Notes: generated by a model not told the origin, from the sequence alone. DNA of 64,000 nt from Nitrospinaceae bacterium (GCA_965237905.1 OZ250172.1:1056001-1120000); one strand, 5' to 3'. Shown: positions 9,313 to 28,458, numbered from the stretch's first letter. A program made the numbers and translations.

Positions 9313-9864
9313 CTACTTCTTTTCCCCGGCCTCAGTTGTCTGCCCGAATGTTTGAGCGATGACCTCGTTAATAGCCTTCTCACCTAAAATATTATATACA
9401 GCATTTGCCGACTTGAAGTGGGCACTGGTGAACAGGCTCATTACCTTTTTACTGGAATACCCGAGCATCATAAATTCGTGGGCGTAATTTTCGGCCACCA
9501 GGCGCAGGGTTTTATCGTCCGCGTCTTCGTCGCCGGTGGGCGGGCCTTCATCAGGATTGATATCGTCCTTGACCTCGTATATGTAGATCAAATGCCAGCC
9601 GAACTCGGTTTTAATGGGCCCGACCACATCCCCCTCCTCCGCGCTGAACGCGGCCACTTCAAAGGGGCGAACCATGGCACCTTTCCCGAACCAGCCCAAG
9701 TCGCCGCCGCGTTTTTTGGAGGGGCACTCGCTGTACTCCTCGGCCATTTTGGCGAACTCGGCACCATCATCCAATTTCTGATTTATTTCATCCGCCAATT
9801 CCTTGGTCGCGACCAGAATGTGGCGGGCCTGAATTTTTTTGACTTTCTTATCTGGATTGCTCAT
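9313..9864 (-). CDS. Parvulin (PpiC-type) PPIase fused to a C-terminal helical domain of unknown function
   Basis: ARHILV, SECPS..RGGDLGWF and KTEFGWHLI motifs; about 70 extra C-terminal residues. Confidence 0.88.
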   Translation of the reverse strand: MSNPDKKVKKIQARHILVATKELADEINQKLDDGAEFAKMAEEYSECPSKKRGGDLGWFGKGAMVRPFEVAAFSAEEGDVVGPIKTEFGWHLIYIYEVKDDINPDEGPPTGDEDADDKTLRLVAENYAHEFMMLGYSSKKVMSLFTSAHFKSANAVYNILGEKAINEVIAQTFGQTTEAGEKK

Positions 9865-9897
9865 AACTTTCCTGCCTTTATTTTGAATTGATATCAA

Positions 9898-10698
9898 TCA
9901 ATTTAATTTCAAACCACAACATTTTTTGAATTTTTTTCCGGACCCGCAAGGACACATTTCATTGCGTTGGACCTTGTGGGGTGTGACTTCCATTTTGGGT
10001 GAAGATTTCAACAATTCCTCACCAATCTGCTTGGCTTCCTTGTAACGCTGTTTCAGAATATCGTTGAGATTGGGAATAAACCGGATAAACTCCATAAGGA
10101 GTTCACTATTCGCCGGCTCGAGCTTGGCTTCCTCCTCTTCCCGGTTTTTCTCATTGAAATAATAGGTGTAGGGGAAAATAGGAGGCGGGCGATCTTCGGC
10201 GTGATCAAATTTGTAAAACGTCAGTTGAACGCTTTTGTTATCATTGCGCGGATCCAGCTCATAGGCCTCTTCGACGAAATGCTTGTTCTCATTATATTTA
10301 AAATCCAGCAGTTGTTTCGCCCGGGGGAACAGTTCCATATAGTTGACATAGCGTCCCGACTCGAACACGAGATAGGACATGGGGTTATTCTCCCCATAAG
10401 CCTTGGCCTCCATGTACCTCTGTTTGAACAGGATGATCATTTCATCCGTCACTTCCGCCATGAATTCATCGAGGATGGATGTTTGGGAGTCGGTTAACTC
10501 CGGATGATTGGGCAGGATTCCCTGTGTTTTATCGAAGTTCAACAGAAAGGAAAACCGGTTATCGTCGTCTTCCTTGTCACAAAGGGAAATGGTGACATGA
10601 TTGCAATCACAAAAAGGATTGGTGCAATAGTAATCTTCCAGAATGTAGAGACTTTTGAAATCTTCTTCCTCAAACCGGTAGGTCATGACCGAGTTCAA
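9898..10698 (-). CDS. SEC-C metal-binding motif protein with an internal domain duplication
   Basis: C-terminal RNEMCPCGSGKKFKKCC; N-terminal CTNPFCDC. Confidence 0.85.
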   Translation of the reverse strand: MNSVMTYRFEEEDFKSLYILEDYYCTNPFCDCNHVTISLCDKEDDDNRFSFLLNFDKTQGILPNHPELTDSQTSILDEFMAEVTDEMIILFKQRYMEAKAYGENNPMSYLVFESGRYVNYMELFPRAKQLLDFKYNENKHFVEEAYELDPRNDNKSVQLTFYKFDHAEDRPPPIFPYTYYFNEKNREEEEAKLEPANSELLMEFIRFIPNLNDILKQRYKEAKQIGEELLKSSPKMEVTPHKVQRNEMCPCGSGKKFKKCCGLKLN

Positions 10699-10770
10699 GC
10701 TTTCCTGATTATTGACAACACTGTACGCTTCGATGACGCTTCTCCTTCTTCACAACATTAATTCTGGCGC

Positions 10771-11199
10771 TCACTCTTCTTCCGTGATGATCCTCACCGC
10801 CCGGATGGAATCCTTGGACGGATCGTCCCGGTTGTTGACGTTGGCGTGGCCATATCGATAATAAAAGATCACCGCCCCATTATGGGGTTTCAGGTCGCTA
10901 GTCCAGGTGGTGTAGCCCCCTCCCGGAGAAAACGCACTGTCGATAAATATTTCAAACCGGTCGCTGTCGCGAATGGACGTTTCCTCGACAAACAGGCTTT
11001 CCGCTTCCTCCAGGTTTGGCATGTGCCAATCGTTATAGCCGGCAAACTTTTTATTGTTCAGTTCCCGGATGTAATCCTCGGCCTTGTACCAGGTATGGAA
11101 TATACTCTGGTCCTGGAATCCGTCGGTTTGCTTCCACATCAAACCTTCTTCCGTATCCGTGACGGTTCCATCCCCGTTATCTTTAAACCGTTTTCCCAT
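10771..11199 (-). CDS. DUF1566/Lcl C-terminal domain protein A
   Basis: RFKDNGDGTVTD..GLMW, DWHMP and IRAVR motifs. Confidence 0.9.
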   Translation of the reverse strand: MGKRFKDNGDGTVTDTEEGLMWKQTDGFQDQSIFHTWYKAEDYIRELNNKKFAGYNDWHMPNLEEAESLFVEETSIRDSDRFEIFIDSAFSPGGGYTTWTSDLKPHNGAVIFYYRYGHANVNNRDDPSKDSIRAVRIITEEE

Positions 11200-11220
11200 C
11201 GAAAGCGCTTGTCCGTCCGA

Positions 11221-11682
11221 TCAAACCTTGTTCATATCACGTACCAGACGGGTGGATCCCCGCGAAACCCGGTAGACGTCGTCGTACATCATCCCGCCCT
11301 TGCGGTAACCGAAGCGAACGGCCTGAATTTTATTCCGCACGTCGCTGGTCCAACACAAAAATCCGAACCCACCGGGGAAAAGAGAATGCAAATAAGCCTT
11401 TTGCCCCATATGATCCTTATTGATCTGGTTTTTATCGTATAAACTTTTCGCCTCTTCCGTCGTGGGAAGCCGCCAGTCGTTGTAACCGGCATAATGAGAC
11501 TGGCTCAACTCTTTCGCATAATCGCGGGACTGAACCCAGTTGAGCCATTTACCGGTCATCTGATACGTATCCTGCCTGAGCCAAACCAGCTTCCGCGTTA
11601 GATCGATCACCGTATGTTCATCCGCCTCGGCAAACCGCTCCTGAACGGCGGTTGAAGCAGGCGTGGGTTCGGAGGGACTCAT
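11221..11682 (-). CDS. DUF1566/Lcl protein B
   Basis: TVID...LVW, GYNDWRLPT and TRLVR motifs. Confidence 0.88.
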   Translation of the reverse strand: MSPSEPTPASTAVQERFAEADEHTVIDLTRKLVWLRQDTYQMTGKWLNWVQSRDYAKELSQSHYAGYNDWRLPTTEEAKSLYDKNQINKDHMGQKAYLHSLFPGGFGFLCWTSDVRNKIQAVRFGYRKGGMMYDDVYRVSRGSTRLVRDMNKV

Positions 11683-12572
11683 TATTCCTTTTCCTCTGGC
11701 AGCAGTGTTCGTACCGCGCGTACGCCGTGGCTTCGCAGTCCTTTTTTATGAAACTTATGATCCCCGCTGTAAAAGTTAAACCGCATCGCTATGCTGTCGT
11801 CGGTTTTATGCAGGGTTTTGGTCCAGGTGGTCTGTCCCGCACCGGGCGGAAACACTGGGACCAGATACAGGGTATCGCCATAAGTGTCGATTACGGGATT
11901 GTTGGGATCGTGGATGGATTGCGCCTCTTTACGTGTGGGCAATCTCCAGTCGCTGTGACCGCCGAATTCCTCTTTGTTGAGCACACTGACTTGGACCTTG
12001 GCCTCGGACCAGCTGATCCATTTGTCCAAATCCAGGTAGGAATCGTCCTGCTTCCACATCAATCCCGTTTCCAGATCGCTGACGGTACCATTGTTGTGAA
12101 CCACATAGCGCTCTTCCGGGGGCAGTTTTGATTCGGCCGTGATGGAGCGGACGGGACGGATGCCGCTGGGGAATCCTTCATTTTCGCGGGCCAGCCAAAA
12201 TTCGTAATCGGCACGGAAATCGTAACCCATCGCCGCCTTGGCGCCGCGGGTTTCGGTGGTCCAGGTCGTGTACCCGCACCCGGAAGTAAATACTGGATCG
12301 ATGTGAGCTTCACACCCCTCCATATCGGTATTGCTGAATTCGGGATCATACAACTCGCGGGCTTCCTGGCCGTTGGGAAATCGCCAGTCGGAGTGCCCAG
12401 CGAATTTTTTTTCGTTCAGCTCTTTGATGTATTCCTGGCCTTGCCACCACGAAACCAGTTTACCGAGCTTCACCCAAGTATCGTCCTTGGCCCACATCAG
12501 GTTTTTTCGAGTATCGGTGACGGTTTCATCCCCGTTATCAATAAACCTGGTTTTAACTTTGGTTCCGCTCAT
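11682..12572 (-). CDS. Tandem two-domain DUF1566/Lcl protein C
   Basis: Two copies of DNG.TV.D..LMW / DWR.P / R.VR; ATG at 12572 follows GAGG. Confidence 0.9.
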   Translation of the reverse strand: MSGTKVKTRFIDNGDETVTDTRKNLMWAKDDTWVKLGKLVSWWQGQEYIKELNEKKFAGHSDWRFPNGQEARELYDPEFSNTDMEGCEAHIDPVFTSGCGYTTWTTETRGAKAAMGYDFRADYEFWLARENEGFPSGIRPVRSITAESKLPPEERYVVHNNGTVSDLETGLMWKQDDSYLDLDKWISWSEAKVQVSVLNKEEFGGHSDWRLPTRKEAQSIHDPNNPVIDTYGDTLYLVPVFPPGAGQTTWTKTLHKTDDSIAMRFNFYSGDHKFHKKGLRSHGVRAVRTLLPEEKE

Positions 12573-12585
12573 AATAGTGGTTTCC

Positions 12586-13095
12586 TCAAGTGTTTCTTCT
12601 GCGACCAACGGTTTTGACCGGGTCTTTGCGGCAGATTCTTACCGACCCGAACGCATATTCATCGGCGCTGGCGATTTGGCCCTGGGTGTAATCGAACCGG
12701 GGCCGCCGTGTAGAGGTGTCCGCCATGGTCCATTGCATTTTGAACGAACCTTCGGGAAACAGGGAATCGATATGAACCGTTTCGCCGGTTTTGCCGGTAT
12801 TCTCCCACTCTGCATCGTACAGGGTGGCCGCCTCTTCGTTGGTCGGTAAGCGCCAGTCCGAGAATCCGCCAATTTTACGTACATTCTTTCTTTCGGCGTA
12901 GTCTTTGGATTCATGCCAGTTGAAATATTTTCCTTTGTCCTGCCAGGAATCTTTTTTCAGCCAGTACATTCCCGTTTGGGTGTCCTGGATCACCAGGGGT
13001 CCGTGTACCACGAACCGCTTGGGACCTTCTTCAACGACTTCCAGTTTGTCGGTTTGCGCGTCGTGAACAACCGGTTTGGTTTCCTCGTCTGCCAT
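12586..13095 (-). CDS. DUF1566/Lcl protein D
   Basis: IQDTQTGMYW, GFSDWRLPT and SVRICR motifs; RBS before MADEETK. Confidence 0.88.
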   Translation of the reverse strand: MADEETKPVVHDAQTDKLEVVEEGPKRFVVHGPLVIQDTQTGMYWLKKDSWQDKGKYFNWHESKDYAERKNVRKIGGFSDWRLPTNEEAATLYDAEWENTGKTGETVHIDSLFPEGSFKMQWTMADTSTRRPRFDYTQGQIASADEYAFGSVRICRKDPVKTVGRRRNT

Positions 13096-13111
13096 AGCGT
13101 GACTTCTCCCC

Positions 13112-13327
13112 TTAATCGGTATAGCCGATTTCGACGTTATCTTCATCGACGTTGACAATCACCGGAATCACATAATCCCCGTTGGAATATTCCAGCATTT
13201 TCTCAAGACCCTGAGGATTGCTCTCCACATTGACATAGATAAAAGGTTTGCACTGTTTTTTATAATCCTGACGGGCCTTGGTAGTGTAAGGACAATCGTC
13301 TTTCCCAAATATCATGTAGTGACTCAC
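13112..13327 (-). CDS. Glutaredoxin-like protein, Cys version of the UXX-star (seleno)protein family
   Basis: IFGKDDCPYTTKAR, YVNV and IPVIV...VEIGY motifs; GTG start after GAGAGG. Confidence 0.75.
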   Translation of the reverse strand: MSHYMIFGKDDCPYTTKARQDYKKQCKPFIYVNVESNPQGLEKMLEYSNGDYVIPVIVNVDEDNVEIGYTD

Positions 13328-13357
13328 AACAACACCTCTCTTCGAGCACAAGCGATT

Positions 13358-14011
13358 TTAACCATCGAACTTTTTGGTCTCGCTCCGCCAATCGGGTTCC
13401 CACGACTCTTTCAGTTCATCGCGGACGGCCCGGACATGGCAAAATTCGTTATCCTTGTGTTCCCACATATCGTTACCGGTAACGTAGCTGAAAATCATGG
13501 CGTATTGCTGAAAATCCGGCTTTTCCTCATACGTCCAGGTATTGTGTCCGCCGCCGGACGCGAACAGAGGATCAATATGGACTTCCGCGCCGTCCTTGTC
13601 CTGGTTGGATACGGCAAACGCGAACAGCGATTTGGCCTCATCAAAGCCGGCCAGCCGCCAATCGTCGAAACCAGCGAATTTTTTTTCGTTCAGTTCCTCG
13701 ATATAATCGTTGGATTCAAACCAGTTGATGCCGTAACCAAAGTCGGCAAAGGAGTCGCTTTTTTTCCACATCAGATTGGAGATGGAATCGCTGATGGTTT
13801 CGTTGCCGTTATCAACTAACTGGGGAACATCCGGCTCTTCCTCTGCCTCTGCCTCCTCCTCGATTTCCTCCCACTCGTCGTCGCCGATCCACTCGTCGGC
13901 GTCGAAGCCTTCTTCATCTTCAAAGTCGTCATCGAGCGGCAGGGTCTTTTTGGCTTCCTCACCGGGGACTTCTTTTTCTTCCGACGGGTCCTTCACTTCT
14001 TCTTCGGACAC
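13358..14011 (-). CDS. DUF1566/Lcl protein E with an acidic N-terminal tail
   Basis: DNGNETISD..NLMW, DWRLA and HVRAVR motifs; about 60 D/E-rich N-terminal residues. Confidence 0.88.
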   Translation of the reverse strand: MSEEEVKDPSEEKEVPGEEAKKTLPLDDDFEDEEGFDADEWIGDDEWEEIEEEAEAEEEPDVPQLVDNGNETISDSISNLMWKKSDSFADFGYGINWFESNDYIEELNEKKFAGFDDWRLAGFDEAKSLFAFAVSNQDKDGAEVHIDPLFASGGGHNTWTYEEKPDFQQYAMIFSYVTGNDMWEHKDNEFCHVRAVRDELKESWEPDWRSETKKFDG

Positions 14012-14057: not shown

Positions 14058-14498
14058 TCAAGCGTCCCTGACCAGGCGAACCGAGGTTCCCGTGGTCGAG
14101 ACCTGCTGGTCCACACACACTTCCTTGATGACAGGGAAATAACATTTCCAGGCGTAGGAATCGTACCGGGTTTCCGAGGTCCAGTAACTCCATTCCCCAC
14201 CTGCCTGATAATTGGCAACGGAACGTTTTTTTTTGGCGGGAAGGTTCACGAACAGCGCCTCATAGGCTTCCTTCGCTTTGAGCAGGCCTCGCATTTCGCT
14301 TTTCGTGGGCAATCGCCAGTCGGTGGTCCCCAGATATTTCTGCTCGTTACAAGCCTCCCGGTAGGCGTTGGCCTCATCCCAATTGAGCCATTTGCCCAAT
14401 TCCTGCCGGGAGTCTTTTTTGACCCAGATCAAATCCTCGTCCACTTGAGCTACGGTTCCGTCACCATTATCTTTAAACAGTTTTTCCCAATCCGCCAT
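14058..14498 (-). CDS. DUF1566/Lcl protein F
   Basis: FKDNGDGTV, DWRLPT, YWTS and SVRLVR motifs. Confidence 0.88.
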   Translation of the reverse strand: MADWEKLFKDNGDGTVAQVDEDLIWVKKDSRQELGKWLNWDEANAYREACNEQKYLGTTDWRLPTKSEMRGLLKAKEAYEALFVNLPAKKKRSVANYQAGGEWSYWTSETRYDSYAWKCYFPVIKEVCVDQQVSTTGTSVRLVRDA

Positions 14499-14700: not shown

Positions 14701-15195
14701 TCAGCGCTGATCACTGATCATCATGCCTCTTTTAGGCGGAATTTTCCCCAAGGAGGCTTTGGATTCCTCGTCCATGGTTCCCCGCACCAGGCGAACGCTG
14801 GTATCCAGGGTGTCGTCTACCTCTTTATGGCCTCCAGTGCCACTGGCAAAGGAAAACACATAAGCGGTGATCCTGCCTCGGGAATTGCTGGTCCAGGTGT
14901 CATAGCCACAGCCCTCGGTAAAGACCGGATCGATATACAAGGCCATTTCGTACTTGTCCTGGATGGATTTTTCCTTCTCCCTGTAATACAGGGAATGCGC
15001 CTCTTCCTTGCTGGGCAGTCGCCAGTCGCTGTATCCCGCGAAGGATTCTTCATTCATTTTAGCCATGAGTTTTTTAGCGGCGGCATAGACCAGAAATCTT
15101 CTAAAAATGTTGTAGGAATCTTCTTGCATCCACATCAGATTAGATTTGTGGTCGGTCACGGTTCCGTCGCCATTATCTACAAATCGTTCTTCCAT
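14701..15195 (-). CDS. DUF1566/Lcl protein G
   Basis: RFVDNGDGTVTD..LMW, GYSDWRLPS and SVRLVR motifs. Confidence 0.9.
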   Translation of the reverse strand: MEERFVDNGDGTVTDHKSNLMWMQEDSYNIFRRFLVYAAAKKLMAKMNEESFAGYSDWRLPSKEEAHSLYYREKEKSIQDKYEMALYIDPVFTEGCGYDTWTSNSRGRITAYVFSFASGTGGHKEVDDTLDTSVRLVRGTMDEESKASLGKIPPKRGMMISDQR

Positions 15196-15267: not shown

Positions 15268-15303
15268 AAAAAAAGCCGGAAGGTCGAAACCCTCCGGCTT
15301 TGC
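15268..15303 (-). terminator. Rho-independent terminator after the secreted hypothetical gene
   Basis: Minus strand: AAAGCCGGAGGG-TTTCG-ACCTTCCGGCTTTTTTT. Confidence 0.75.
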
Positions 15304-15326
15304 TAATACAGATGTAAGAGTGAAAC

Positions 15327-15818
15327 TTAGCGATTGGCCTCAGACTTGGCGCCCGTAACACCGTAGATACCGCGCTCGGTGCCTTCCGGCATACCCAGAG
15401 TCGGCTCGATGTACGTGCCCGGCTGTACGTGGTCCATATGGTAATTGGACTGATACGTTTTACCGGAACCCGCGTCGATTTTCCAGTCATGGCGGTCAAA
15501 GCGCTGACGCTGACAGTTCACCACAATGGTACCCGGGCCCTTGTTCCAAAAGTCTGTTTTCATAGCAATCGAACCGGCCTGATACCCACCGGGAGCAATC
15601 ACTCTTGTCATTTTTTTGCCCCAATTGTAGCCCCAAGGGCCAATATCAAATGTTACCGTGGTGGATTTGGTCTCACTGGTGTTGTAGAAAATCCACGAGG
15701 CGTTTTCACAAACACTGTGTCCCCCCGACTTAAGGTTTGTTTCATTGGCGGCGGCCAAGGACGCGAAGGCCAACAGAACGAAAGCCACGGACAGGACGGC
15801 AATTAATTTTCTTACCAT
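15327..15818 (-). CDS. Secreted hypothetical protein
   Basis: Sec signal peptide (MVRKLIAV...AAA), GGGAG RBS, two Cys, beta-rich N-terminal domain. Confidence 0.75.
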   Translation of the reverse strand: MVRKLIAVLSVAFVLLAFASLAAANETNLKSGGHSVCENASWIFYNTSETKSTTVTFDIGPWGYNWGKKMTRVIAPGGYQAGSIAMKTDFWNKGPGTIVVNCQRQRFDRHDWKIDAGSGKTYQSNYHMDHVQPGTYIEPTLGMPEGTERGIYGVTGAKSEANR

Positions 15819-16128: not shown

Positions 16129-16524
16129 TCAGACCTGAAATTTGAGGGAAGTCAAATTTATCAAGTGGGTGGAGTTCATCAGAGCCCGCTCCCCTTCCTC
16201 AGTCAAGTCGTTGACCACCAGCTGGATGGATTTCAGATTGCCCAAGGTGGTGGAATTGGCAAGAAATTCAGCACCGACATCGGTGATACGATTGGACTTC
16301 AAGTTTAACGTTCTCAAATTGGAAAAGAGGGGCGACTCAGCGACCGCTTTGACTCCCACATCTCCGATATCGTTTTGCGAAAGGTCCAACGCACGCAAGG
16401 TGGACAATTCTTCGCATTGAGCCAACTCTTTCGCACCGACTTCACGAATATATTTGGCTTTGAGGTTGAGCACCTGCCCGTCTTTACTCAGATGGGTTTT
16501 AATCAGTTTTTTTATATCCGCCAT
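16129..16524 (-). CDS. Leucine-rich repeat protein (RI/GALA-like)
   Basis: LDLSQNDIGDVGVKAVA and LNLKSNRITDVGAEFLA repeats. Confidence 0.88.
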   Translation of the reverse strand: MADIKKLIKTHLSKDGQVLNLKAKYIREVGAKELAQCEELSTLRALDLSQNDIGDVGVKAVAESPLFSNLRTLNLKSNRITDVGAEFLANSTTLGNLKSIQLVVNDLTEEGERALMNSTHLINLTSLKFQV

Positions 16525-16568: not shown

Positions 16569-17372
16569 TTATCCCAAACCTGGGATATCTTTAGCTTCAA
16601 ATCCATATTCGTCAAACGCCTTCCATCCCACGGCCAGCATTTTCTTGGCGTACTTGGACATCAAGTTGGCCTGGGAATGATTGGGATCAATTTCCAGAGT
16701 CTTTTTAATCAGCTTCAGGGCTTTTTGAACATCCTGGATTTCGCTTCCATATTTGGCGATCTGACGGGATTTGTCGATCAGGTCCGATCCCCACTTGTAA
16801 TAAATATTGGCCAGTTGAACCGGCGCTTCCTTACTGATGAAGTCTACCAGCTCGTCATCGGCTTTTAACTGCGGGAGAAATTCCATAGCTTTCTGAAAGT
16901 GATGGATCGGAACTGCGTAATCTTCCTCGAAAACCTCGACGATGGAATCCCCCGGCTTGTGAGCGGAATGCAAACCGATAGAGCTCTTCACCACCACGGA
17001 TTGGATTCCGGACAGTAGCTGATGAAAAATCAGATTGCCCATTCCATAATGGATGATCGCATGGAAGTCCTGTTCCGTATCGCATTCGAGAGCGCGTTCG
17101 TATTCGGCTTTGGCTTCTTCCCTGTCTCCCAATTCTTCCAGCGCTTCTGCCAGATTGTAATGATGAACACAATTGTCCGGATCTTCTTCAAGAACGGCAC
17201 GAAACTCCTCGATTTGCGCCTCCAGATCGAACTCTGCCAGCTCCCCTCCTTCCTTCTCAAGCTTGTCGCGGGCCGCTTCGTCCTCCTCGACTTCTTGCAG
17301 GTTGGGATCGATCTCTTCTTCAGCCGCCGTTTGCTCCGGCACGGTGTTTTCTTCTTTATCTTCGGGACTCAT
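16569..17372 (-). CDS. TPR protein with an acidic N-terminus
   Basis: HYNLAEALEELG..AKAEYERALE and KKTLEIDPNH motifs. Confidence 0.82.
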   Translation of the reverse strand: MSPEDKEENTVPEQTAAEEEIDPNLQEVEEDEAARDKLEKEGGELAEFDLEAQIEEFRAVLEEDPDNCVHHYNLAEALEELGDREEAKAEYERALECDTEQDFHAIIHYGMGNLIFHQLLSGIQSVVVKSSIGLHSAHKPGDSIVEVFEEDYAVPIHHFQKAMEFLPQLKADDELVDFISKEAPVQLANIYYKWGSDLIDKSRQIAKYGSEIQDVQKALKLIKKTLEIDPNHSQANLMSKYAKKMLAVGWKAFDEYGFEAKDIPGLG

Positions 17373-17401: not shown

Positions 17402-18073
17402 TCATTTTCTTGCCAGTTCTGAACCGTTGTTATCGCGTACCGCGCGAATCACACTGAGAGAATGCTGAATGCCCCCCTTCATGCTCGGATACGCCTTACC
17501 GCGGATATAATTATATCCCCAGGCCATATCGCCCTTGGCCTCTTCACTGCTCCAATAACAGCAATGGCTCTTCCCGAATATGGGATCGATATGCAGTTCG
17601 TTTTTGGTCCAGTAATAGTTCCAGGGAACCGATTGCTTTTCATCAAACAGAGTGGCCAACTCTTTACGGGTCGGCAAGCGCCAGGTACCCGCTCCCCCAA
17701 ATTTGGCTTCATTCAACTCGCGGATATAATCCTGGGCCTTATGCCAGTTGATCCACTGCTTGCGGACTTGATACGAATCGATCTGAACCCAGATCAGTTT
17801 TGTTTCGAGATCGGTCACGGTTCCGTTTTTATTATCCTGGAACCGAGGGTTATCGGAGGAGGGAGCGACGTCTGTTTTCGGCTCGGTCAACGTCAAAATC
17901 TGCCCGCCGAATTCATAATCCGTCTTGTCTTCCTTGGCCTGTTGCGCCGTCGGATTATCCGGTATCGGTTCGCCTGCCAGACCTGCAGAAGGAACAACCG
18001 CCAAGGCGATCGCCAAAAGTATTGCCTTCAATACCGGAAGGGCCTGCCGTTGAACCGGGTTGATCTCTGCCAT
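17402..18073 (-). CDS. Exported DUF1566/Lcl protein H
   Basis: GAGGAGG RBS, hydrophobic signal segment, RFQDNKNGTVTD, WRLPT and IRAVR motifs. Confidence 0.88.
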   Translation of the reverse strand: MAEINPVQRQALPVLKAILLAIALAVVPSAGLAGEPIPDNPTAQQAKEDKTDYEFGGQILTLTEPKTDVAPSSDNPRFQDNKNGTVTDLETKLIWVQIDSYQVRKQWINWHKAQDYIRELNEAKFGGAGTWRLPTRKELATLFDEKQSVPWNYYWTKNELHIDPIFGKSHCCYWSSEEAKGDMAWGYNYIRGKAYPSMKGGIQHSLSVIRAVRDNNGSELARK

Positions 18074-20246: not shown

Positions 20247-22058
20247 ATGAAAACAGCGTTGATTTTTCCACCGCAATGGTTTCCCAGCCAGCCTTATCTG
20301 GCTCTGCCGACACTGACCGCCTTTCTTCAGCACCACGGCCATGCGGTGGATCAATTTGATTTTAATATCGAAAGTTACGACACCTTCCTCCACCGTAGTT
20401 ACCTGGAGGAATGCCTGGGGAAAATCAAAGAACGCCTCAACCAGCCCGCCTACACGCCAGAGGAAAATGAAATCAAAGGGGTGTACCGGGAAATCCTGGG
20501 CGACACCGATTTTCTGGAATCCGTTCTGGACGGTGTGGAGGATGCCAAGAACGCTCTGAGAACCGAGGAGATGTTTTTCCAGTTCCCGGTTTACAAGCGG
20601 GCTTACACCACCCTGAAGGTGGCCATGCAGTTGATCTCCTACGCACATTTCCCGACCAAGGTGGACCTGGAATCGTTTTTCATGCAAGGCAATCCGGAGG
20701 AAAACCTGGAAGGGATTCTGCAAGCCACGGCGGACCCGGTCACCAACCCGTACCTCACTTTGTTTGAAAATCAGATGCTGTCCAAGGCGCCGTGGGACGA
20801 ATACGGCTTGGTGGGCATCTCGATCATTCACGTCGGACAGGTGATTGCCGGTTTAACGCTGGCCCGCCTGCTCCGCGAGAAGCACCCGCACCTTCACATC
20901 TGCATCGGCGGCAGTGTCTTCACCCGGCATTCCGGTATCATGGAAAACAAACAGGTTCTGTTTGAAAAAATATTTCACAGCATCATCCAATTCGAAGGCG
21001 AATACCCCCTGCTGAAACTGGTGGAACAACTCAAAGCCGGCGGCTCTTTGAGCGAGGTGCCGAATCTGACGTATCTCGATCAGGGCAAGGTGATCACCAA
21101 TGCCAAATCCGAGTCTCTCCCCTATGATCAACTGGTGCGGCCGACGTTCGACCAACTGCCGCTCGAAAAATATCTGATGCCCTACCCTGTCCTGCCCTAC
21201 ATGGCCAGCCGGGGATGTTACTGGGGCAAGTGCACATTTTGCACTCATAGCCACATCTACGACTCCTATTACCGTAAGGATAATGAGGAGCGCGTGGCGC
21301 TCGATCTCGATTACCTGGGCAAACGGTACGGCACGCGCTACTTCACCTTCTCGGATGAGGCCATTTCACCCAACGCGTTCAAGCGCATGTCCTATTCCGT
21401 GCTCAAGCACAAGGTGGACATGAGGGCGCTGGGCATGATCAAATTCGAGGCCGACACTGTCGAAAGCGAAGATCTGTTCAAGGATATGTTTGAGGCGGGA
21501 TTTATCATGTTGTTCTTCGGGCTGGAGAGCGCCAACGACCGCGTGCTGTCGATCATCGACAAAGGCTGTGACCAGAAAACCGAAGAAATGGTCCTCGAAA
21601 ACAGTTCGCGCGCCGGCATCTGGAATCATTTGTACCTGTTCTTCGGTTTTCCCACTGAGGAGCGGGAGGAGGCGGAAGACACCATCCAGTTCACCGTCGA
21701 TCATGGAGAACGGGGGTCGGGGTCTATCCATTCGGTCGGGCAATCGACTTTTACGTTGGAAAAGGACTCGGCCATCTTCCACAATCCGCAAAAATTTTCG
21801 ATCGACCGCATCCTGCACGACCCGGACCGCGACATGGCGATCATCTTCGATTACGAAATACAAAAGGGCATGCCGCGCAAGGAAATCATGGAAGTGTACG
21901 AACGGTTCGATGAGGTGCTGGAGGAACAGTTCCCCTCCCGCAAAATCTGGAATTACCTGTCGCGGGAGCATTTTCTGCTCTACCTGGACCGGTTCGGACG
22001 GGAAGAACTGTTGAAAATGGCACAGGACGAGGCGGTGACCGAAACGGTGGGGGCCTGA
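20247..22058 (+). CDS. B12-binding-domain radical SAM enzyme
   Basis: IFPP..PYLAL, ICIGG, FEGE, SRGCYWGKCTFC, FGLESA and FFGFPTE motifs. Confidence 0.9.
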   Translation: MKTALIFPPQWFPSQPYLALPTLTAFLQHHGHAVDQFDFNIESYDTFLHRSYLEECLGKIKERLNQPAYTPEENEIKGVYREILGDTDFLESVLDGVEDAKNALRTEEMFFQFPVYKRAYTTLKVAMQLISYAHFPTKVDLESFFMQGNPEENLEGILQATADPVTNPYLTLFENQMLSKAPWDEYGLVGISIIHVGQVIAGLTLARLLREKHPHLHICIGGSVFTRHSGIMENKQVLFEKIFHSIIQFEGEYPLLKLVEQLKAGGSLSEVPNLTYLDQGKVITNAKSESLPYDQLVRPTFDQLPLEKYLMPYPVLPYMASRGCYWGKCTFCTHSHIYDSYYRKDNEERVALDLDYLGKRYGTRYFTFSDEAISPNAFKRMSYSVLKHKVDMRALGMIKFEADTVESEDLFKDMFEAGFIMLFFGLESANDRVLSIIDKGCDQKTEEMVLENSSRAGIWNHLYLFFGFPTEEREEAEDTIQFTVDHGERGSGSIHSVGQSTFTLEKDSAIFHNPQKFSIDRILHDPDRDMAIIFDYEIQKGMPRKEIMEVYERFDEVLEEQFPSRKIWNYLSREHFLLYLDRFGREELLKMAQDEAVTETVGA

Positions 22059-22082: not shown

Positions 22083-22760
22083 ATGGAACTGCTACCTTCG
22101 ATCGCTGGTTTATTGGTCGCTCTCGGTGGGCCGCCTCTCGTCGCGCTGTACGGAACGCGTACCGCTTCCAAGCCAGCTTCCCTTACGACCAACCTCTTGT
22201 GCCAACTTGCGCTGTTGGGGCTCCTCCTGGCGATTGTACTAATTGTCTTGGTGTGGGAACAGGCGCCGCTGTCCTCGCTTGGCCTTCGTGGTGTCGACCT
22301 CTCCACGTTCACCTGGGCAGCCGGAGTCGCTGCGCTTTTCATCTTCGTGCTGGGCCCGATCATCGTGCGAATGCCAAAATGGTTGAGTCAGCCCGGATTT
22401 GAGAAGCCGCTTGGCGATCTACAGAAGTTGCCTGTGTGGTACCTGATCCTAGCCGTCTTCATCGGTGGATCGGTTGAGGAATTGCTCTACCGCGGCTTTG
22501 CAATCGAGCATCTGGCGCATATTATTGGAAGCGACTGGCTCGCTGCTGCCACCGTCATCGCGATGTTCGGCCTGGCCCATGTTCCGTTATGGGGCTGGGC
22601 ACCTGCGCTGACGGCGACATTCTCGGGCGCTGTTCTGACGATCTTCTATCTGTGGCATCGCGATCTCGTCGCAAATATCTTGGCGCATGTGACAACCGAC
22701 TTCGTGGGCATTGTTCTTCCTGTGCTTCTGGCAAAAACGCGGCGGACGGCATCGCAATAG
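22083..22760 (+). CDS. CPBP (Abi/CAAX) intramembrane metalloprotease
   Basis: EELLYRG, FGLAH and ILAH motifs. Confidence 0.9.
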   Translation: MELLPSIAGLLVALGGPPLVALYGTRTASKPASLTTNLLCQLALLGLLLAIVLIVLVWEQAPLSSLGLRGVDLSTFTWAAGVAALFIFVLGPIIVRMPKWLSQPGFEKPLGDLQKLPVWYLILAVFIGGSVEELLYRGFAIEHLAHIIGSDWLAAATVIAMFGLAHVPLWGWAPALTATFSGAVLTIFYLWHRDLVANILAHVTTDFVGIVLPVLLAKTRRTASQ

Positions 22761-23084: not shown

Positions 23085-24191
23085 ATGGCGGATATTGATG
23101 TCAATGAGGATTTTAACCCTCAGGAGTTCCGGGAAAAACAGGAAAGCAAAAAGCAGTCGGATTTGATCACGATGAAAATCCATCCTGAAATCTGGGATGA
23201 ACTGGGAGTGCGCGACCCGGAGCAGATCAAGCTGGAAACCGCCATCATGAAAAAAACCCGGCAGATCAAAAAAGAACTCCGGACCGATCCCGACAACCTG
23301 GACAAGCAGGTGGAACTGGGCACCCTTTACATCGACGGGGGTAACTACGAAGATGCCATCAAAATGGTCCGGGCCGTAGTCAGTAAAGATCCCAAACATG
23401 CCCGCGCCCGTAAAGTCCTCGGCACCGGCTACGCGCTCAGCAACCAGGAAGATGAAGCCATCCGGGAACTCAACCGCGCGATAGAACTGGACCCCGACGA
23501 TGCTGAAACTCATTTCAACCTCGGTGGGGTGTACATGTTGCAGGACTCGTTTGGCAACGCAGAGCAGGAATTCAAGAAAGTGGCCAAGCTGGATCCATCG
23601 GATACCACCGCCTACGCCAATCTGGCCGCCGCGTACAACATGCAGAAAAATCACCTGGAAGAAATCCGGACATTGAAAAAAGTGCTGATGTTCGATCCGG
23701 AAAACAAGGAACTGCGCTCCGCCCTGAGCAACGCCTATTTTCATGTGGGCGATTTCGACGAATCACTCACCAGCGCCCTGTGCGTCATCGAACTGGATGA
23801 AAAGGACCCGCAGGCCTACTGCAACCTGGGAAGTATCTATTCCGCCCAGAACATGGTGGAAGAAGCGGTGGAAGCGTTCCAGAAAGCCATCGAGATGGAC
23901 CCGGAGTATTCGCTCCCGCACACCAATCTGGGAAGTTTGTACGGAACCATCGGGCGAGTCGAAAGCGCCATCAAGGAATTCAAAAAAGCCACCAGCCTCA
24001 ACTCCGGGGATGCCGAGGCCTGGCTGAATCTGTACCATTCCTATAAAGAAATCGGACGGCAGGAAGACGCCACCAAGGCCTATCAGAAGTTCGAAACGCT
24101 GACCAAGGCACCCGCACCCGGCGGCGGTAAAACTGAATTCTCCGGTGTTCCCGGCGGCGTGTCCACCACCGGCGATACGGCGGGTGAATAG
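23085..24191 (+). CDS. Multi-TPR protein
   Basis: About 8 repeats of the type AHFNLG..Y...A...F.KA..LDP. Confidence 0.92.
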   Translation: MADIDVNEDFNPQEFREKQESKKQSDLITMKIHPEIWDELGVRDPEQIKLETAIMKKTRQIKKELRTDPDNLDKQVELGTLYIDGGNYEDAIKMVRAVVSKDPKHARARKVLGTGYALSNQEDEAIRELNRAIELDPDDAETHFNLGGVYMLQDSFGNAEQEFKKVAKLDPSDTTAYANLAAAYNMQKNHLEEIRTLKKVLMFDPENKELRSALSNAYFHVGDFDESLTSALCVIELDEKDPQAYCNLGSIYSAQNMVEEAVEAFQKAIEMDPEYSLPHTNLGSLYGTIGRVESAIKEFKKATSLNSGDAEAWLNLYHSYKEIGRQEDATKAYQKFETLTKAPAPGGGKTEFSGVPGGVSTTGDTAGE

Positions 24192-24334
24192 CGGGGTAGC
24201 CCCCCGCTGGCAACTGGCTAACAGTTAACGGCAAGCGATGCATCTTGGAGCGCATTTAAAAATTAGATGTTCTCCGCGCCCTCTGTGGTAAATTCTACCC
24301 TCTGATCTACTATCTTCACTGATGCAAAGGTCTG

Positions 24335-25714
24335 ATGGCCCGTACGGATTCACAACTTCTGCCGCTCGGCGATTTCAAACCCTCGGATGAGTGGCAGACG
24401 CACGTCAATGCCATTTTCTACGGGATCAAGGGTCCCGCAATCCATCACCATTTCCAGACTTACGTTAGCCGCGATTACCGGCTGGCACATGCTCTTGCTG
24501 ACGGGTTTCTGAAGGATGTTCAGGAACGCGGCCCGGCCGACGGTCCGATCCATATTCAAGAATGGGGCGTCGGCAACGGCAACCTGGCGGCGCGTTTCCT
24601 GGCGCGCCTGAAATCCGCCGATACCGATCAGACGGTCTACCCGCGCATCCACTACACGCTGTGTGACTACTCCGAGGAAATTTTAAATGGCGTGCGCGCC
24701 AACCCGAATCTGCAGGAACATGAAGGCCGTTATTTTTTGAAGCGGGTCAACGCGGAAACGCAGGACGATTTCGAACCGCACTCGGTGCATAAAATCATCT
24801 CCAACGAAATCTGGGACGATCTTGCGACAAGCGTCTTGCTCAAAAACGACGGCATGCTGTACGAGGAGTACCTGCAACCGCTCCTGCCGCAGAACATCCC
24901 GAACATTCTCTCGCTCGTCGAGCAGTTCAGCGAAAAGAATCTGGATGCGCTGAAAAGCCATCCGCCGTTTCTGGAAGATATCGTGTGGGAACGCAGTTTC
25001 CAGCGCACCGATATCTCGGACTGGCCATACGGCGAAGTCATCCTGAAACATCTGGACCGGCTGGAGGACGAAATCCTCATCCCTGTCAACACCGGCGCAT
25101 TTCAAACCGTCGAGCGGGCACAACGCATGCTCGCCGAAAATAATCTGGGATACACCTCGCTCGATTACGGCATGCTGTCCGATCACGAACTCAACTGGCG
25201 GGGCCGCCCCTATTACAAACTGTACGGCGGACAGTACACCTCGATGGTGAACTTTCCGTTGATCGCGGAGGTGGCACAAGCGGTCGGGTTCGCCGACGTT
25301 CAGTGGGAGCATCAACACGATTTTGTCGGACGCAATCTATCGGAGAACGTGTTGAGTGCCTTGGAGCTGGTGCAGGTTCATCCCAAAATTTCACGCATGG
25401 AGCCGTGGGACGCGGACCTCCTGATGCTTCAGACCCTGCAGGCGTTGAACGCCTCGTACCGGAGTCCCTACAAGAGCCAAATGGATTATCCCCCTATGCC
25501 CGGCACCCCCAAGAAACAGCGCAAACAGATCGCCGAGCTGGCGAAAAACCTGAGCGCCACCGGCGTACCGGATACCGTGGCCTACATCACAGAAAGCGAA
25601 GTGACCGACTCCACCGGACGCCTCAAAAAACTCGGCTACGGCGAACGCGATTTGAAAGCCGCATTCGATCGCACCACCCAACCCATCGCCTTCGGCCACA
25701 TGACTTTGCGGTAA
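24335..25714 (+). CDS. SAM-dependent methyltransferase, MidA/NDUFAF7-like, with a C-terminal extension
   Basis: EWGVGNG motif I, ISNEIWDDL, LDYG and TSMVNF. Confidence 0.72.
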   Translation: MARTDSQLLPLGDFKPSDEWQTHVNAIFYGIKGPAIHHHFQTYVSRDYRLAHALADGFLKDVQERGPADGPIHIQEWGVGNGNLAARFLARLKSADTDQTVYPRIHYTLCDYSEEILNGVRANPNLQEHEGRYFLKRVNAETQDDFEPHSVHKIISNEIWDDLATSVLLKNDGMLYEEYLQPLLPQNIPNILSLVEQFSEKNLDALKSHPPFLEDIVWERSFQRTDISDWPYGEVILKHLDRLEDEILIPVNTGAFQTVERAQRMLAENNLGYTSLDYGMLSDHELNWRGRPYYKLYGGQYTSMVNFPLIAEVAQAVGFADVQWEHQHDFVGRNLSENVLSALELVQVHPKISRMEPWDADLLMLQTLQALNASYRSPYKSQMDYPPMPGTPKKQRKQIAELAKNLSATGVPDTVAYITESEVTDSTGRLKKLGYGERDLKAAFDRTTQPIAFGHMTLR

Positions 25715-25819
25715 ATCACCCCGCCTCTTGTTTCCCATGAAAATTCGTCGTTTCAAACTCCCAATACCGGGCCGGAACGGGTATGATGTGGGGTAATCAC
25801 CCTTTTGGACGTTTTCGTT

Positions 25820-26839
25820 ATGCTCAGTATTTTTGTCGAGGTCAGTTGCGGTCGTTACCTGAAGGACGAGTGCACCTTCTGCCACGTCTACGAACCGCTC
25901 ATGCAGATGCCGAAATCCGACTGGCACCTGACCCCCGCCCAGGCGCAATTGATGGCGGATAAAATCCGGCAAGTGGAAGTGCTGAACACCCTGGCCCAGC
26001 ACGAGATCAACCTGACCGGCGGCGAGGCGTCGCAGAATCCCGAAATCGTCGACATCTTCAAAATTTTCAAAGCCGTCACCCCCAACGTCTGCCTGCACAC
26101 CAACCTCGATATCAAGTCGGAAGAAACCAAACGCTGGCAGAAGCTGGTGGAGATCATGCAGCTCGGCGGGCGCATCGACATCACCCTCTACCCGACGGTG
26201 TGGGAAGAACGGCAAAAACCGTTACTTGCGGAGATGATGACCCTGCAGAACAAACTGCTGGTCAATGTGGTCTTCGAATCAGTGACCGATCTCGCCATGC
26301 AGTTGGGCCTGCTGGTGGATTTTTTCAGTACCGTGAAACCGGAGGTTCCGGAGATCGCGACTCTGCTCGACGAGTATCTCGGCAAGGTCCAATACCTGGT
26401 GGAACACAACCCCAACTGCGACGAGACGATTTACACGACGCACATGGGAGATACCGGATCGTTCACGCGGTCGGGGGATTTTATTTTCGGGATCAATTTA
26501 TTACCGGCGTTCGGAATGGACGAACAGGGACGGCGCGCCATGACATCCAATCCGTTTCCGAAAAACACCTACCTGTTGGAATGCGTCGCGGCGCGGGGGT
26601 CCATCGAAATCATGACGGTCCAGCAGAACGGCAACATGACGCCCTGCTGTGACGTTGGCAACCTGAAGTGCCTGCCGACCTTCGGTAATTTATTTGAAGA
26701 TTCGCCCGAGGAAATCGAGACGAAGTTCGAGGCATCACGCCGGAAGATCGAGGCGGGGATTCATAAAAACAAGGTCAACCTCAAGAGCGAGAAAGCGGGA
26801 CAATGGGTGGAGGAAGGCATCCCGCCCTATTGCCTGTAA
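25820..26839 (+). CDS. Radical SAM enzyme with a SPASM/twitch-like C-terminus
   Basis: CGRYLKDECTFC, LTGGE, HTN and C...TV..NGN.TPCC...FGNL motifs. Confidence 0.8.
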   Translation: MLSIFVEVSCGRYLKDECTFCHVYEPLMQMPKSDWHLTPAQAQLMADKIRQVEVLNTLAQHEINLTGGEASQNPEIVDIFKIFKAVTPNVCLHTNLDIKSEETKRWQKLVEIMQLGGRIDITLYPTVWEERQKPLLAEMMTLQNKLLVNVVFESVTDLAMQLGLLVDFFSTVKPEVPEIATLLDEYLGKVQYLVEHNPNCDETIYTTHMGDTGSFTRSGDFIFGINLLPAFGMDEQGRRAMTSNPFPKNTYLLECVAARGSIEIMTVQQNGNMTPCCDVGNLKCLPTFGNLFEDSPEEIETKFEASRRKIEAGIHKNKVNLKSEKAGQWVEEGIPPYCL

Positions 26840-26859
26840 CCGGGCAACGCCCGTAGGAT

Positions 26860-26903
26860 AAAAAACGGCGGGACCCTGATGGCTATCAGGATTCCGCCGT
26901 TTT
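26860..26903. terminator. Bidirectional terminator
   Basis: AAAACGGCGGGA-CCTGAT...ATCAGG-TTCCGCCGTTTT. Confidence 0.75.
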
Positions 26904-26928
26904 GAGATTTTTCGGTTAACGAAAACTT

Positions 26929-28458
26929 TTAGGCCAACTCTTTTTGGGCTTCTTCGTCCTCTTCCTCGTCGTCCATGAAATCGTCATCGTGACCCATGAG
27001 CAGTTCAGGATCCTCGATGGCCGGATGATCGATCTCTTCATGCTTGCCATCTCTATTGGAGTCCGGAAGCTCTTCCCAGATCACGACCCGGGAATTTCCA
27101 CGGTCACAAATGTAGAGCTTGCCAATATCGTCTTCATCTTCCAGATCCTCGTCGATAAACAGCCCGTAGGGATCGTTCAGGCTACATTCGGAAGCCTCGC
27201 CGCCCCGGTTGAATTTGTGTCCGGAGAAAGCATTCTGGCCGATCACCAGGTCCGCCGGCTGACCGTTCTCCGTCGGCAGTTCCTTCCAAACCAGTACCCG
27301 GTTGTTACCGGAGTCTGACACAAACAGTCCTTTGCGGCCATAAACCACGTCGGTGGGGAAATACATCCCAACGGAGTCCGCCCGTTTCATTCCCAGCCCG
27401 CCATTGACTTCACGGCTGTAGAAATCCTTTTGACCCAACACCAGGTCTGCGGGAACACCGTTGTTCGAAGGTAATTTATTCCAGATCAAAACGCGGTTGT
27501 TGCCCTGATCCACGACGAATACTTTTCCGGTTTCCTCATGGTAGAAAGCAGAGGTGGGAAAACTGAGCGTTTCCGGAGTCACATTGTCAAAATCGCCCCG
27601 GTTGGGCTCCCGTTCATCCATGCCGAATTGTCCCAGGCAAACATCAGCATTCCAACCATCATTGAAGGGAATTTTCTGCCAGATCAAAACCCGGTGATTG
27701 TCCTTGTCCGCCACGATCACATGCTGGTCGTTGCCGGAGCGGATGGAGAATGGGAAAAACAGAGATCCCGACCCGACCAGCCCGCGCCGGTTAGCCTCAC
27801 CACACTCCAGGTTATCCTGGCCCAAAACGAGACCCGGAACTTCACCGTCCTCGGAGGGCAGGCCGTTCCAGCGAAGCACACGATGGTTGCCGCTGTCGGA
27901 CACATACAGTTTTCCGTCAATGACGGCAACTCCCGCCGGTGACGAGATGGTGTCTTCCTCCGGTTTACTGATGGTGAAACCTTCCAGGTTTTCGTCACCC
28001 AGACCGGAAGTCATTTCGTCAAGCGTGGTGCTGATGCCGCGGTTTTCCAGACAGTCGGAAAAATCCTCCTGACCCAGCACAATGCTTGCGGGTTCGCCGT
28101 TCTCTTCGGGGAACTGGTTCCAGACCAGCACCCGGTGGTTGCCCCAGTCACTTACAAACAGCATATCGCCGTAACGACAGGCGAATTGCGGTTCGGAAAG
28201 AGTGTTGTCGCCGGGATCGTCGGCTCCACGGTTGGCTTCGCGTACGGAAAAATCGCTCTGGCCGATAACCATAACCGCGCCGATCTCCTTCTCTTTCTCT
28301 TCTTCCCCACCCTCGATCTCGTCGAATTCATCCATTTCCTCTTCGGTGAGGGCATCTTCTTCAATTTCCTCTTCTTCTACTGCTTCGAGCCCTTCTTCGG
28401 CCACTTCGAGGGCCTCATCCTTGATCTCTTCTTCCTTTTTGACTTGGTCTTCAGACAT
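26929..28458 (-). CDS. NHL-repeat protein (VLGQ.DF type) with acidic termini
   Basis: Repeated VSD.GN.RVL.W...P...G.PAD.VLGQ. Confidence 0.88.
   Translation of the reverse strand: MSEDQVKKEEEIKDEALEVAEEGLEAVEEEEIEEDALTEEEMDEFDEIEGGEEEKEKEIGAVMVIGQSDFSVREANRGADDPGDNTLSEPQFACRYGDMLFVSDWGNHRVLVWNQFPEENGEPASIVLGQEDFSDCLENRGISTTLDEMTSGLGDENLEGFTISKPEEDTISSPAGVAVIDGKLYVSDSGNHRVLRWNGLPSEDGEVPGLVLGQDNLECGEANRRGLVGSGSLFFPFSIRSGNDQHVIVADKDNHRVLIWQKIPFNDGWNADVCLGQFGMDEREPNRGDFDNVTPETLSFPTSAFYHEETGKVFVVDQGNNRVLIWNKLPSNNGVPADLVLGQKDFYSREVNGGLGMKRADSVGMYFPTDVVYGRKGLFVSDSGNNRVLVWKELPTENGQPADLVIGQNAFSGHKFNRGGEASECSLNDPYGLFIDEDLEDEDDIGKLYICDRGNSRVVIWEELPDSNRDGKHEEIDHPAIEDPELLMGHDDDFMDDEEEDEEAQKELA

Follow-up and report, generated by a model that had tools for sequence, protein, structure and literature searches.

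A 64,000-nucleotide stretch of the complete 3.09-Mb genome of a Nitrospinaceae bacterium (GCA_965237905.1, OZ250172.1:1056001-1120000; G000:C1:1056001-1120000 in our numbering; hereafter the window) encodes an array of Lcl_C/DUF1566 family proteins, with LRR, TPR and NHL-repeat proteins among them and enzymes on either side. Genes were called by a Pfam search of the open reading frames (ORFs) of the window at the curated gathering cut-offs, that for Lcl_C/DUF1566 (PF07603) being 34.9 bits. This recovered eight co-oriented minus-strand genes with nine domains, all above the cut-off (51.7-140.8 bits), between 10771 and 18073, which bears out what a sequence-only reading of the window had proposed. 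A profile search of the 3.09 Mb yields 25 Lcl_C matches above the cut-off in 24 genes: an even spread predicts 0.06 domains per ~7.4 kb, and nine of the 25 are found within such a stretch; therefore, the array is a real cluster. Its conservation was studied in the matching region from ten genomes belonging to families f1, f2 and f4 of the same order, Nitrospinales. We designate the paralogs A to H, and the cluster reads as follows in window coordinates:

9313..9897, minus strand: parvulin-type peptidyl-prolyl isomerase without a leader, with a C-terminal extension of ~85 residues (Pfam Rotamase_3, 89.5 bits)
9898..10698, minus strand: SEC-C protein of 266 residues, with the C-terminal metal-binding motif at residues 245-262 (Pfam SEC-C, 38.3 bits)
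10771..11199, minus strand: Lcl_C paralog A, 142 residues, leaderless (69.1 bits)
11221..11682, minus strand: Lcl_C paralog B, 153 residues, leaderless (69.6 bits)
11682..12572, minus strand: Lcl_C paralog C, with two domains (C1 and C2), leaderless (140.8 bits over two stretches)
12586..13095, minus strand: Lcl_C paralog D, leaderless (51.7 bits)
13112..13315, minus strand: glutaredoxin-like protein of 67 residues, between E and D (Pfam Glutaredoxin, PF00462, 26.8 bits against a cut-off of 22.9)
13358..14011, minus strand: Lcl_C paralog E, with an acidic N-terminal tail of ~65 residues (59.3 bits)
14058..14498, minus strand: Lcl_C paralog F, leaderless (63.2 bits)
14701..15195, minus strand: Lcl_C paralog G, leaderless, the first gene past the u163 terminator (71.3 bits)
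15272..15301, minus strand: terminator-like hairpin (13 pairs, then a T run) immediately 3' of u163
15327..15818, minus strand: u163, an exported protein of 163 residues (hydrophobic leader in 11/11 genomes; 50-68% identity in 10/10 loci)
16129..16524, minus strand: RNI-type LRR protein of 131 residues, leaderless (Pfam LRR_6, 53.9 bits)
16569..17372, minus strand: TPR1, a TPR protein of 267 residues with an acidic N-terminal tail of ~60 residues (Pfam; 58-70% identity in 10/10 loci)
17402..18073, minus strand: Lcl_C paralog H, the only exported copy of the array (73.7 bits)
18090..19124, minus strand: NHL1, a leaderless NHL-repeat beta-propeller of 344 residues with an acidic N-terminal tail (Pfam NHL, 116.8 bits)
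19313..19927, minus strand: u204, a conserved ORF of 204 residues, with an acidic N-terminal tail of ~65 residues and a C-terminal domain of 139 residues

The probable starts are Met12 (9864) for the parvulin, Met41 (18073) for H, whose ORF is open to 18193, and Met22 (13095) for D, whose ORF is open to 13158 and would in its longer form overlap the glutaredoxin-like gene; C and F begin with an ATG at 12572 and 14498, in ORFs open to 12608 and 14522, respectively. Pfam also supports the LRR, TPR and NHL proteins that the sequence-only reading had placed among the paralogs, as well as the parvulin, the SEC-C protein, a second NHL protein and a MidA-like methyltransferase that it had placed around them. 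Its glutaredoxin likewise holds up, albeit as a small protein: the gene is found in 10/10 loci (67-78% identity, tblastn) and once in this genome, and its CP[YH]T motif, common to all 11 genomes, retains only the first Cys, so that the classic thiol-disulfide chemistry is not assured. Three genes have to be added to the earlier list, namely u163 (15327-15818), u204 (19313-19927) and a CPBP protease on the divergent side (22083-22760). Of these, u163 has no match in Pfam or NCBIfam and only Nitrospinota hypothetical proteins as neighbours in the ESM Atlas, while u204 falls into no known family in NCBIfam and other family searches and finds no usable match in the ESM Atlas. No Pfam family is matched by the N-terminal ~240 residues of the SEC-C protein, and Rfam at its gathering thresholds returns no match anywhere in the window.

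The order parvulin-SEC-C-A-B-C-D-E-F-G-u163-LRR-TPR1-H-NHL1 is identical in 10/10 fetched loci from the three families, and the conserved order spans from serA, before the parvulin gene, to a divergently oriented radical SAM gene; the array is present in a fourth family, f3, as well (G031:C14). Beyond the identities listed above, orthologs in 10/10 loci share 73-80% with the parvulin, 48-69% with the SEC-C protein, 66-79% with NHL1 and 66-84% over 139 residues with u204 (tblastx). The homologs come from sources named Nitrospina gracilis, N. watsonii, Ca. Nitronauta, Ca. Nitrohelix and Nitromaritima and are annotated only as having a DUF1566/Lcl C-terminal domain. We observed that each paralog matches its positional ortholog best, with the next paralog scoring roughly half as many bits. 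Concordantly, a maximum likelihood tree (quick search, LG+G4, 127 columns, 114 domains, 11 genomes) recovers each of them as a single clade, with SH-aLRT values of 100 for A, D, F and G, 99 for E and H, and 98 for B and C2 (11 rows each), and of 88 for C1 (10 rows). One clade per paralog combined with a fixed order indicates that the duplications predate the order and that every copy has been kept. Thus, the conserved order and one-to-one orthology of the paralogs that had been put forward as a check are seen in all ten loci and at SH-aLRT 88-100, whereas the two outcomes named as refuting, namely recent lineage-specific duplicates and a gene order that is not conserved, were both tested and neither was found.

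The two-domain fusion of C is kept in 10/11 genomes. In one genome, G038 (L009:6576-7520, minus strand), gene C carries a single in-frame stop at the Glu/Gln of TWT(S/T)ETRG. Selenocysteine or a true split of the gene was rejected, as the stop replaces Glu/Gln and not Cys; it may stem from a nonsense mutation or from an error in the draft assembly, and as a single event of either kind it yields no Rosetta-stone argument.

The size of the family, too, is constant across the order. Lcl_C is found in 77/77 genomes of Nitrospinales, with 21-28 matches where the genome is at least 90% complete and 23 matches in each of two that measure 1.6 and 1.7 Mb; counts drop to 10-13 in just three genomes, of 83-84% completeness. 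In sister families (15 genomes) there are 0-17 matches, 11/15 genomes having any, and the four sister-family genes whose N-termini were read all possess leaders. Measured against two other genera, A, E and F have a dN of 0.12-0.17, close to the 0.10-0.13 of serA; as dS is saturated at this distance, dN alone is quoted. The view of the paralogs as intact, diverged, non-redundant and mostly cytoplasmic hence stands, and is strengthened by this constancy across the order.

Leaders were judged by reading the longest open N-termini here and in the ten relatives, with start codons placed by alignment. A hydrophobic leader is absent from paralogs A-G in 11/11 genomes and present in H, in agreement with the earlier count of seven leaderless copies and one exported copy. 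This bears directly on the alternative that A-G are exported without a signal peptide as periplasmic or surface lectins or adhesins, with the SEC-C protein and the parvulin as escorts. Export is the rule for the known DUF1566 proteins (Lcl, PMC11162425; the lipoprotein LdtA, PMC5758913). Furthermore, seven family genes of this genome are extracytoplasmic by our reading (H, five dispersed genes with leaders and a protein combining receiver, transmembrane and Lcl_C regions), H and u163 are exported from within the cluster, and a SEC-C motif, as in the SecA tail, lies within the A-G unit. Nevertheless, A-G show no sign of the export to the cell surface seen in Lcl-type adhesins, the putative escort parvulin is itself leaderless, Pfam and NCBIfam detect no secretion-system gene in the cluster, and the long acidic tails and the glutaredoxin-like partner suit the cytoplasm. 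We therefore regard leaderless export as distinctly unlikely.

An AlphaFold2 model of paralog A (98 sequences) has a pLDDT of 96.2, and its top solved match is the C-terminal domain of Legionella Lcl (8q4e_A; Foldseek E 6.5e-4, TM-score 0.51/0.55). VIA-align superimposes the two with a Z-score of 11.9 and a root mean square deviation of 3.3 A over 117 residues at 20% identity. Further fold matches include the Bdellovibrio Bd2740 fibre tip, CarF, TvpA, Mtd, intimin, snake-venom lectin-like chains, PvdO and FGE. These comparisons confirm, at the level of the predicted model, a C-type-lectin-like fold for the Lcl_C paralogs. By sequence, protein C alone reaches only chance level against the PDB, while a profile finds 8q4e at E 0.0098. 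The DWR-P...E core motif, with its Arg-Glu salt-bridge positions, is retained in the array paralogs.

Along the domain, conservation follows a distinctive pattern: within orthogroups identity is 0.64 in the N-terminal half and 0.69 in the C-terminal half, whereas between paralogs it is 0.41 and 0.26, respectively, and the columns that are fixed among orthologs yet differ between paralogs concentrate in the C-terminal half. In C-type-lectin folds this half furnishes the binding surface, and in the targets of diversity-generating retroelements (DGRs) it is the variable region. Since it is conserved within orthologs and diverged between paralogs, each paralog seems, as far as the alignments indicate, to have its own conserved specificity. 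The AlphaFold2 model of the two-domain C (10 orthologs) has a pLDDT of 63.2, with the C-terminal half of each domain below 50, and was not used; a complex prediction for C and B (alignments of 96 and 98 rows) returned 'no answer' with a score of 0.00, which weighs neither way.

On the minus strand the genes are read in the order u204, then NHL1-H-TPR1-LRR, then u163, then G-F-E-glutaredoxin-D-C-B-A-SEC-C-parvulin, the parvulin being the last gene of a long unit. Promoters and terminators were called as consensus matches and are thus predicted rather than mapped ends. By these calls, u204 is framed by a sigma-70-like promoter with 12/12 matches (20053-20024) and a hairpin (19224-19201), and a further terminator-like hairpin lies 3' of the parvulin gene (9263-9232). 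The gene u163, with flanking gaps of ~300 and ~130 nucleotides and the hairpin at its 3' side, is probably its own transcription unit. The translational coupling that had been proposed for some paralogs is seen at C and B, where stop and start overlap by 1 nucleotide in this genome, within a tightly packed D-C-B-A run: the D-to-C gap is at most 21 nucleotides in 10/11 loci and the C-to-B gap at most 25 in 9/11. Another shared feature is the long acidic N-terminal tail found on four proteins, E, TPR1, NHL1 and u204. Its net charge is -21 to -32 over 65 residues in E and -18 to -32 over 60 residues in TPR1; it is kept in 11/11 genomes for both and in 10/11 for NHL1, and short motifs within it are conserved, EWIGDDEW-like in E and E(T/I)LPEE in NHL1.

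As a separate observation on u163, in one marine-sediment metatranscriptome its contig depths sum to 267-783, whereas the remainder of the cluster reaches 0-27. It is a weak hint that Nitrospinales may keep u163 in the periplasm at very high abundance, coming from a single run (6% of sampled words) stored as contigs, which is not informative on operons, strands or levels and in which the parts of the cluster that lack RNA cover carry no meaning.

Taken together, we tentatively favour, with somewhat less than even confidence, the view that this is an ancient cluster kept gene-for-gene across Nitrospinales, whose leaderless paralogs A-G act as cytoplasmic paralog-specific binding modules along with the LRR, TPR and NHL proteins. 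Each paralog would recognise its own conserved partner, be it a protein, a glycan or a metabolite, via the C-terminal half of its domain. From the packing, the fused C, the repeat scaffolds and the acidic tails we infer a joint assembly, possibly a hetero-oligomer with the repeat proteins: the D-C-B-A proteins and those with acidic tails (E, TPR1, NHL1 and u204) could meet in one assembly, for which the short conserved tail motifs might act as docking points. Redox upkeep and folding may then fall to the glutaredoxin-like protein, the SEC-C protein and the parvulin.

Several points weigh against this view. The binding role of the array proteins is itself a prediction, the leaders were judged by eye with start codons placed by alignment, and to our knowledge all characterised DUF1566/Lcl_C members are extracellular. 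The whole region is collinear over more than 35 kb, which makes a conserved order by itself less telling than in other settings. The strong terminator after u163 and the gaps between G and F (175-733 nucleotides across the loci) divide the cluster into several units. Moreover, 16 of the 24 family genes lie singly in unrelated housekeeping contexts, next to genes for QPRTase, anthranilate synthase, alanine racemase, citrate synthase, DnaJ, GatB and others, with no neighbour common to the contexts of the 16, which indicates that the family can work without the array.

These same facts lend themselves to the main rival explanation, which holds that the paralogs are independent single-domain binders and the array a relic of old tandem duplications under shared regulation, with no physical assembly. 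The dispersed members, about ten of them leaderless, five with leaders and one the receiver-transmembrane-Lcl_C protein, agree with it, and so do the collinearity of the region and the separate terminator of u163. In addition, the two dispersed paralogs that were tested are conserved as well as those of the array: each has one clear ortholog in 5/5 genomes from four families, with identities of 66-77% and 45-62%, while the next paralog reaches no more than 47% and 37%, respectively. It does not readily account for the gaps of at most 25 nucleotides between D, C, B and A in most genomes, the C fusion in 10/11 genomes, or the presence in the cluster, in all loci, of repeat scaffolds of three kinds along with four acidic-tailed proteins. 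On balance we consider it rather unlikely, with leaderless export and the two alternatives discussed further below less likely still.

Among the dispersed members, the receiver-transmembrane-Lcl_C gene (L025:3439-4542, plus strand; G000:C1 ~2906938-2908041) encodes 367 residues in which a receiver domain is fused to a coiled coil, a transmembrane segment and Lcl_C, and lies directly 3' of a gene for a GAF-GAF PilB/T2SSE-type ATPase; its product is possibly a sensor with a periplasmic lectin fold, linked to a pilus or secretion ATPase. Two genes with an FGE-sulfatase domain, another lectin-like fold (L014:2706-3551 and L015:692-1597, both minus strand), are situated within 3 kb of dispersed Lcl_C paralogs.

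The LRR protein of the cluster belongs to a family that parallels Lcl_C: it occurs in 77/77 Nitrospinales genomes and 0/15 sister-family genomes, and the positional ortholog of the cluster copy is present in 72/77 genomes of the order at 60-96% identity. A custom profile of the family detects 24 ORFs in this genome, mostly leaderless and 150-460 residues long; the equality with the number of Lcl_C genes (24 and 24) may be chance. Apart from the LRR gene of the array, 3/24 LRR ORFs lie within 10 kb of any Lcl_C gene. At L024:2050-4387 (minus strand), an exported Lcl_C gene is directly upstream of a cytochrome c/EB_dh fusion gene, whose product is a paralog of the one encoded near the array (window 28581-30170, minus strand), with an LRR paralog 6.5 kb away; the same LRR-to-Lcl_C spacing recurs in G013, G017, G019 and G020.

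The divergent side of the array contains a further set of genes:

20247..22058, plus strand: radical SAM protein of 603 residues, B12-binding class B-like, divergent from the array (Pfam Radical_SAM, 51.8 bits)
22083..22760, plus strand: Rce1/CPBP intramembrane protease (Pfam Rce1-like, 56 bits)
23085..24191, plus strand: TPR2, a TPR protein (Pfam)
24335..25714, plus strand: Methyltransf_28/MidA-like protein, hereafter MT28 (25.9 bits against a cut-off of 23.3)
25805..26839, plus strand: SPASM-like radical SAM protein, a variable neighbour (19.3 and 19.0 bits, below both Pfam cut-offs)
26929..28467, minus strand: NHL2, an NHL-repeat protein of 512 residues (Pfam NHL, 84 bits)

These genes raise the alternative that the divergent radical SAM, TPR2 and MidA-like proteins, perhaps with the SPASM protein, have the array proteins as substrates or partners in one protein-modification system. 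Consistent with it, the radical SAM gene is conserved (66-76% identity in 9/10 loci, the tenth locus stopping short of it), TPR2 and MT28 stand beside it wherever the fetched loci extend that far, and an extra SPASM copy is inserted in the array itself, between H and TPR1, in L004 and L010, both from genus g6 genomes, which is the only positive sign of a link. In NCBIfam, the radical SAM protein scores best against peptide C-methyltransferases, albeit short of the cut-off (TIGR03975, 112 bits against 281.85). Against it, the three genes adjoin the array as part of a collinear block of more than 35 kb, with serA on one side and NHL2, the cytochrome c/EB_dh gene and more genes to ~35 kb on the other (6/7 extensions, in which NHL2 and the cytochrome c/EB_dh gene are likewise syntenic). 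Their adjacency is thus not specific to enzymes, and we treat them as neighbours. The SPASM gene is 3' of MT28 in 3/7 extensions (G011, G024 and G040) and absent there in G013, G030 and G012; the CPBP protease has no blastp match in the 10 syntenic loci and is hence confined to this genome among those compared; and the 16 dispersed paralogs have no such enzyme neighbours. A maturation cluster like those of radical SAM-dependent ribosomally synthesized and post-translationally modified peptides is not apparent either, as the maturase models score below their cut-offs, no precursor came to light and the SPASM gene varies among relatives.

Hence, of the 'own modification enzymes' attributed to the array by the sequence-only reading, the adjacency of the radical SAM, TPR2 and MT28 genes is real, but the collinear block, the variable SPASM gene and the CPBP protease found only here detract from the claim; gene order points weakly, at best, to a link between the array and such enzymes, and we think a single modification system very improbable. 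Likewise, the 'B12 radical SAM' is a radical SAM protein by Pfam, with the 'B12' part drawn from below-cut-off NCBIfam matches only, and the 'SPASM radical SAM' is present as a gene that scores below both Pfam cut-offs.

Elsewhere in the window, we noted three further tandem duplications (34868-35786, 38999-40240 and 49688-51082) with periods of ~512, 615-624 and 686-692 nucleotides and 72-90% identity, of which the pair at 39007-40239 encodes two proteins of ~203 residues sharing a leader sequence. A 42-nucleotide in-frame repeat, present three times at 5040-5182, encodes an acidic EE(V/I)S(Y/F)E(V/I)PEAETGD-like peptide.

Returning to the favoured view of A-G as cytoplasmic binding modules, the constancy of ~24 copies, their one-to-one orthology and their slow evolution argue for a core, non-redundant intracellular role of the lectin fold. 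The globally abundant marine nitrite oxidisers keep these ~24 copies even where the genome is as small as 1.6 Mb, most of them leaderless and all evolving at rates like those of housekeeping genes, and among the Nitrospinota genomes searched only Nitrospinales have the ~24 Lcl_C and ~24 LRR genes in this form. A bolder extension, which we hold to be improbable, is that Nitrospinales possess an intracellular recognition apparatus made of both families, with the cluster encoding a core particle in which acidic tails dock on the TPR, LRR and NHL proteins and which would organise or regulate some process that the nitrite-oxidising lifestyle depends on; the nine lectin-fold domains might then correspond to three Lcl-like hetero-trimers. 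We know of DUF1566/Lcl_C only as an extracellular adhesin or as a receptor-binding domain of phages and DGRs. Our literature search returned no paper on the cluster or on an intracellular core role of the lectin fold, and the supplements of PMC11428151 contain neither 'DUF1566' nor 'Lcl'. Targets of the paralogs, if found, could reveal a new layer of cell organisation or regulation in Nitrospinales, and would turn the paralogs into a natural set of binding scaffolds that are small, stable and poor in cysteine. The question is testable in the cultured Nitrospina gracilis and N. watsonii, both of which are among the sources of homologs.

With respect to known systems, the array paralogs have both family and fold in common with Lcl (PF07603, PDB 8q4e), which its study describes as a secreted homotrimer with a collagen-like stalk that binds host glycosaminoglycans via a basic surface (PMC11162425). 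Unlike Lcl, seven of the eight array proteins lack a leader and all eight lack a stalk, and their nine domains are diverged and kept as one-to-one orthologs. The DGR proteins TvpA (Z 9.7) and Mtd (Z 8.7) share the fold class. DGR category 'd' targets (CLec2; DUF1566, DUF823 as well as Fib_succ_major, e.g. Legionella LdtA) are about half short DUF1566-only proteins (PMC5758913). Like such targets, the array paralogs concentrate their divergence in the C-terminal half. However, the known DGR variable proteins are surface-exposed whereas A-G are leaderless, and relatives show no hypervariable C-terminal region: being the best conserved half among orthologs, it appears hard-wired and not diversified. 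Furthermore, the reverse transcriptase domain RVT_1 is absent from this complete genome and found at all in 8/41 relatives, and the window has no template/variable repeat of at least 40 nucleotides involving the array, apart from paralog motifs that are 60-74% identical. An active DGR target set was accordingly rejected.

A second comparison is with bacterial conflict systems, where intracellular lectin-fold (FGS/FGE-sulfatase) and LRR sensor domains are described in STAND/NTPase proteins (PMC8195603), and with cyanobacterial DGR-tuned regulatory proteins (PMC7517822). The array would resemble these in using a lectin-like fold as an intracellular recognition module with LRRs alongside. This likeness, together with the small stand-alone DUF1566 proteins carried by phages, favours a reading of the Lcl_C and order-specific LRR families as germline-encoded intracellular invader sensors, or as a frozen former set of DGR targets. 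However, the conflict-system domains are fused to NTPases, kinases or effectors and evolve fast (PMC8195603), while the array proteins stand alone at 140-300 residues, with no effector, NTPase or other output domain fused or adjacent, and combine slow evolution with one-to-one orthology, the opposite of conflict genes. In PADLOC-DB 2.0 (E <= 0.001), a library of described systems, Lcl_C, LRR, TPR1, NHL1, u163 and u204 have no match, those obtained being limited to the SEC-C motif (22-26 bits) at the tail of that protein. The scarcity of RVT_1 and the lack of a template/variable repeat speak against a former DGR set too, and the viral relatives are just 26-50% identical. We consider this reading highly improbable, the least likely of those weighed here. 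As for the viral collections themselves, they hold only distant DUF1566 relatives (in BFVD at TM-scores of 0.56-0.68 and 19-20% identity; in IMG/VR 65 loci at 26-50% identity, mostly across the conserved N-terminal half), and a phage origin of the array was rejected.

The last comparison, with the C-type-lectin-like proteins of snake venoms, is one of fold only: at 9-15% identity they align with Z-scores of ~8-8.8, and unlike the array paralogs they are eukaryotic, secreted and disulfide-linked. These venom proteins bind proteins rather than sugars, and they assemble into hetero-oligomers of diverged paralogous chains.

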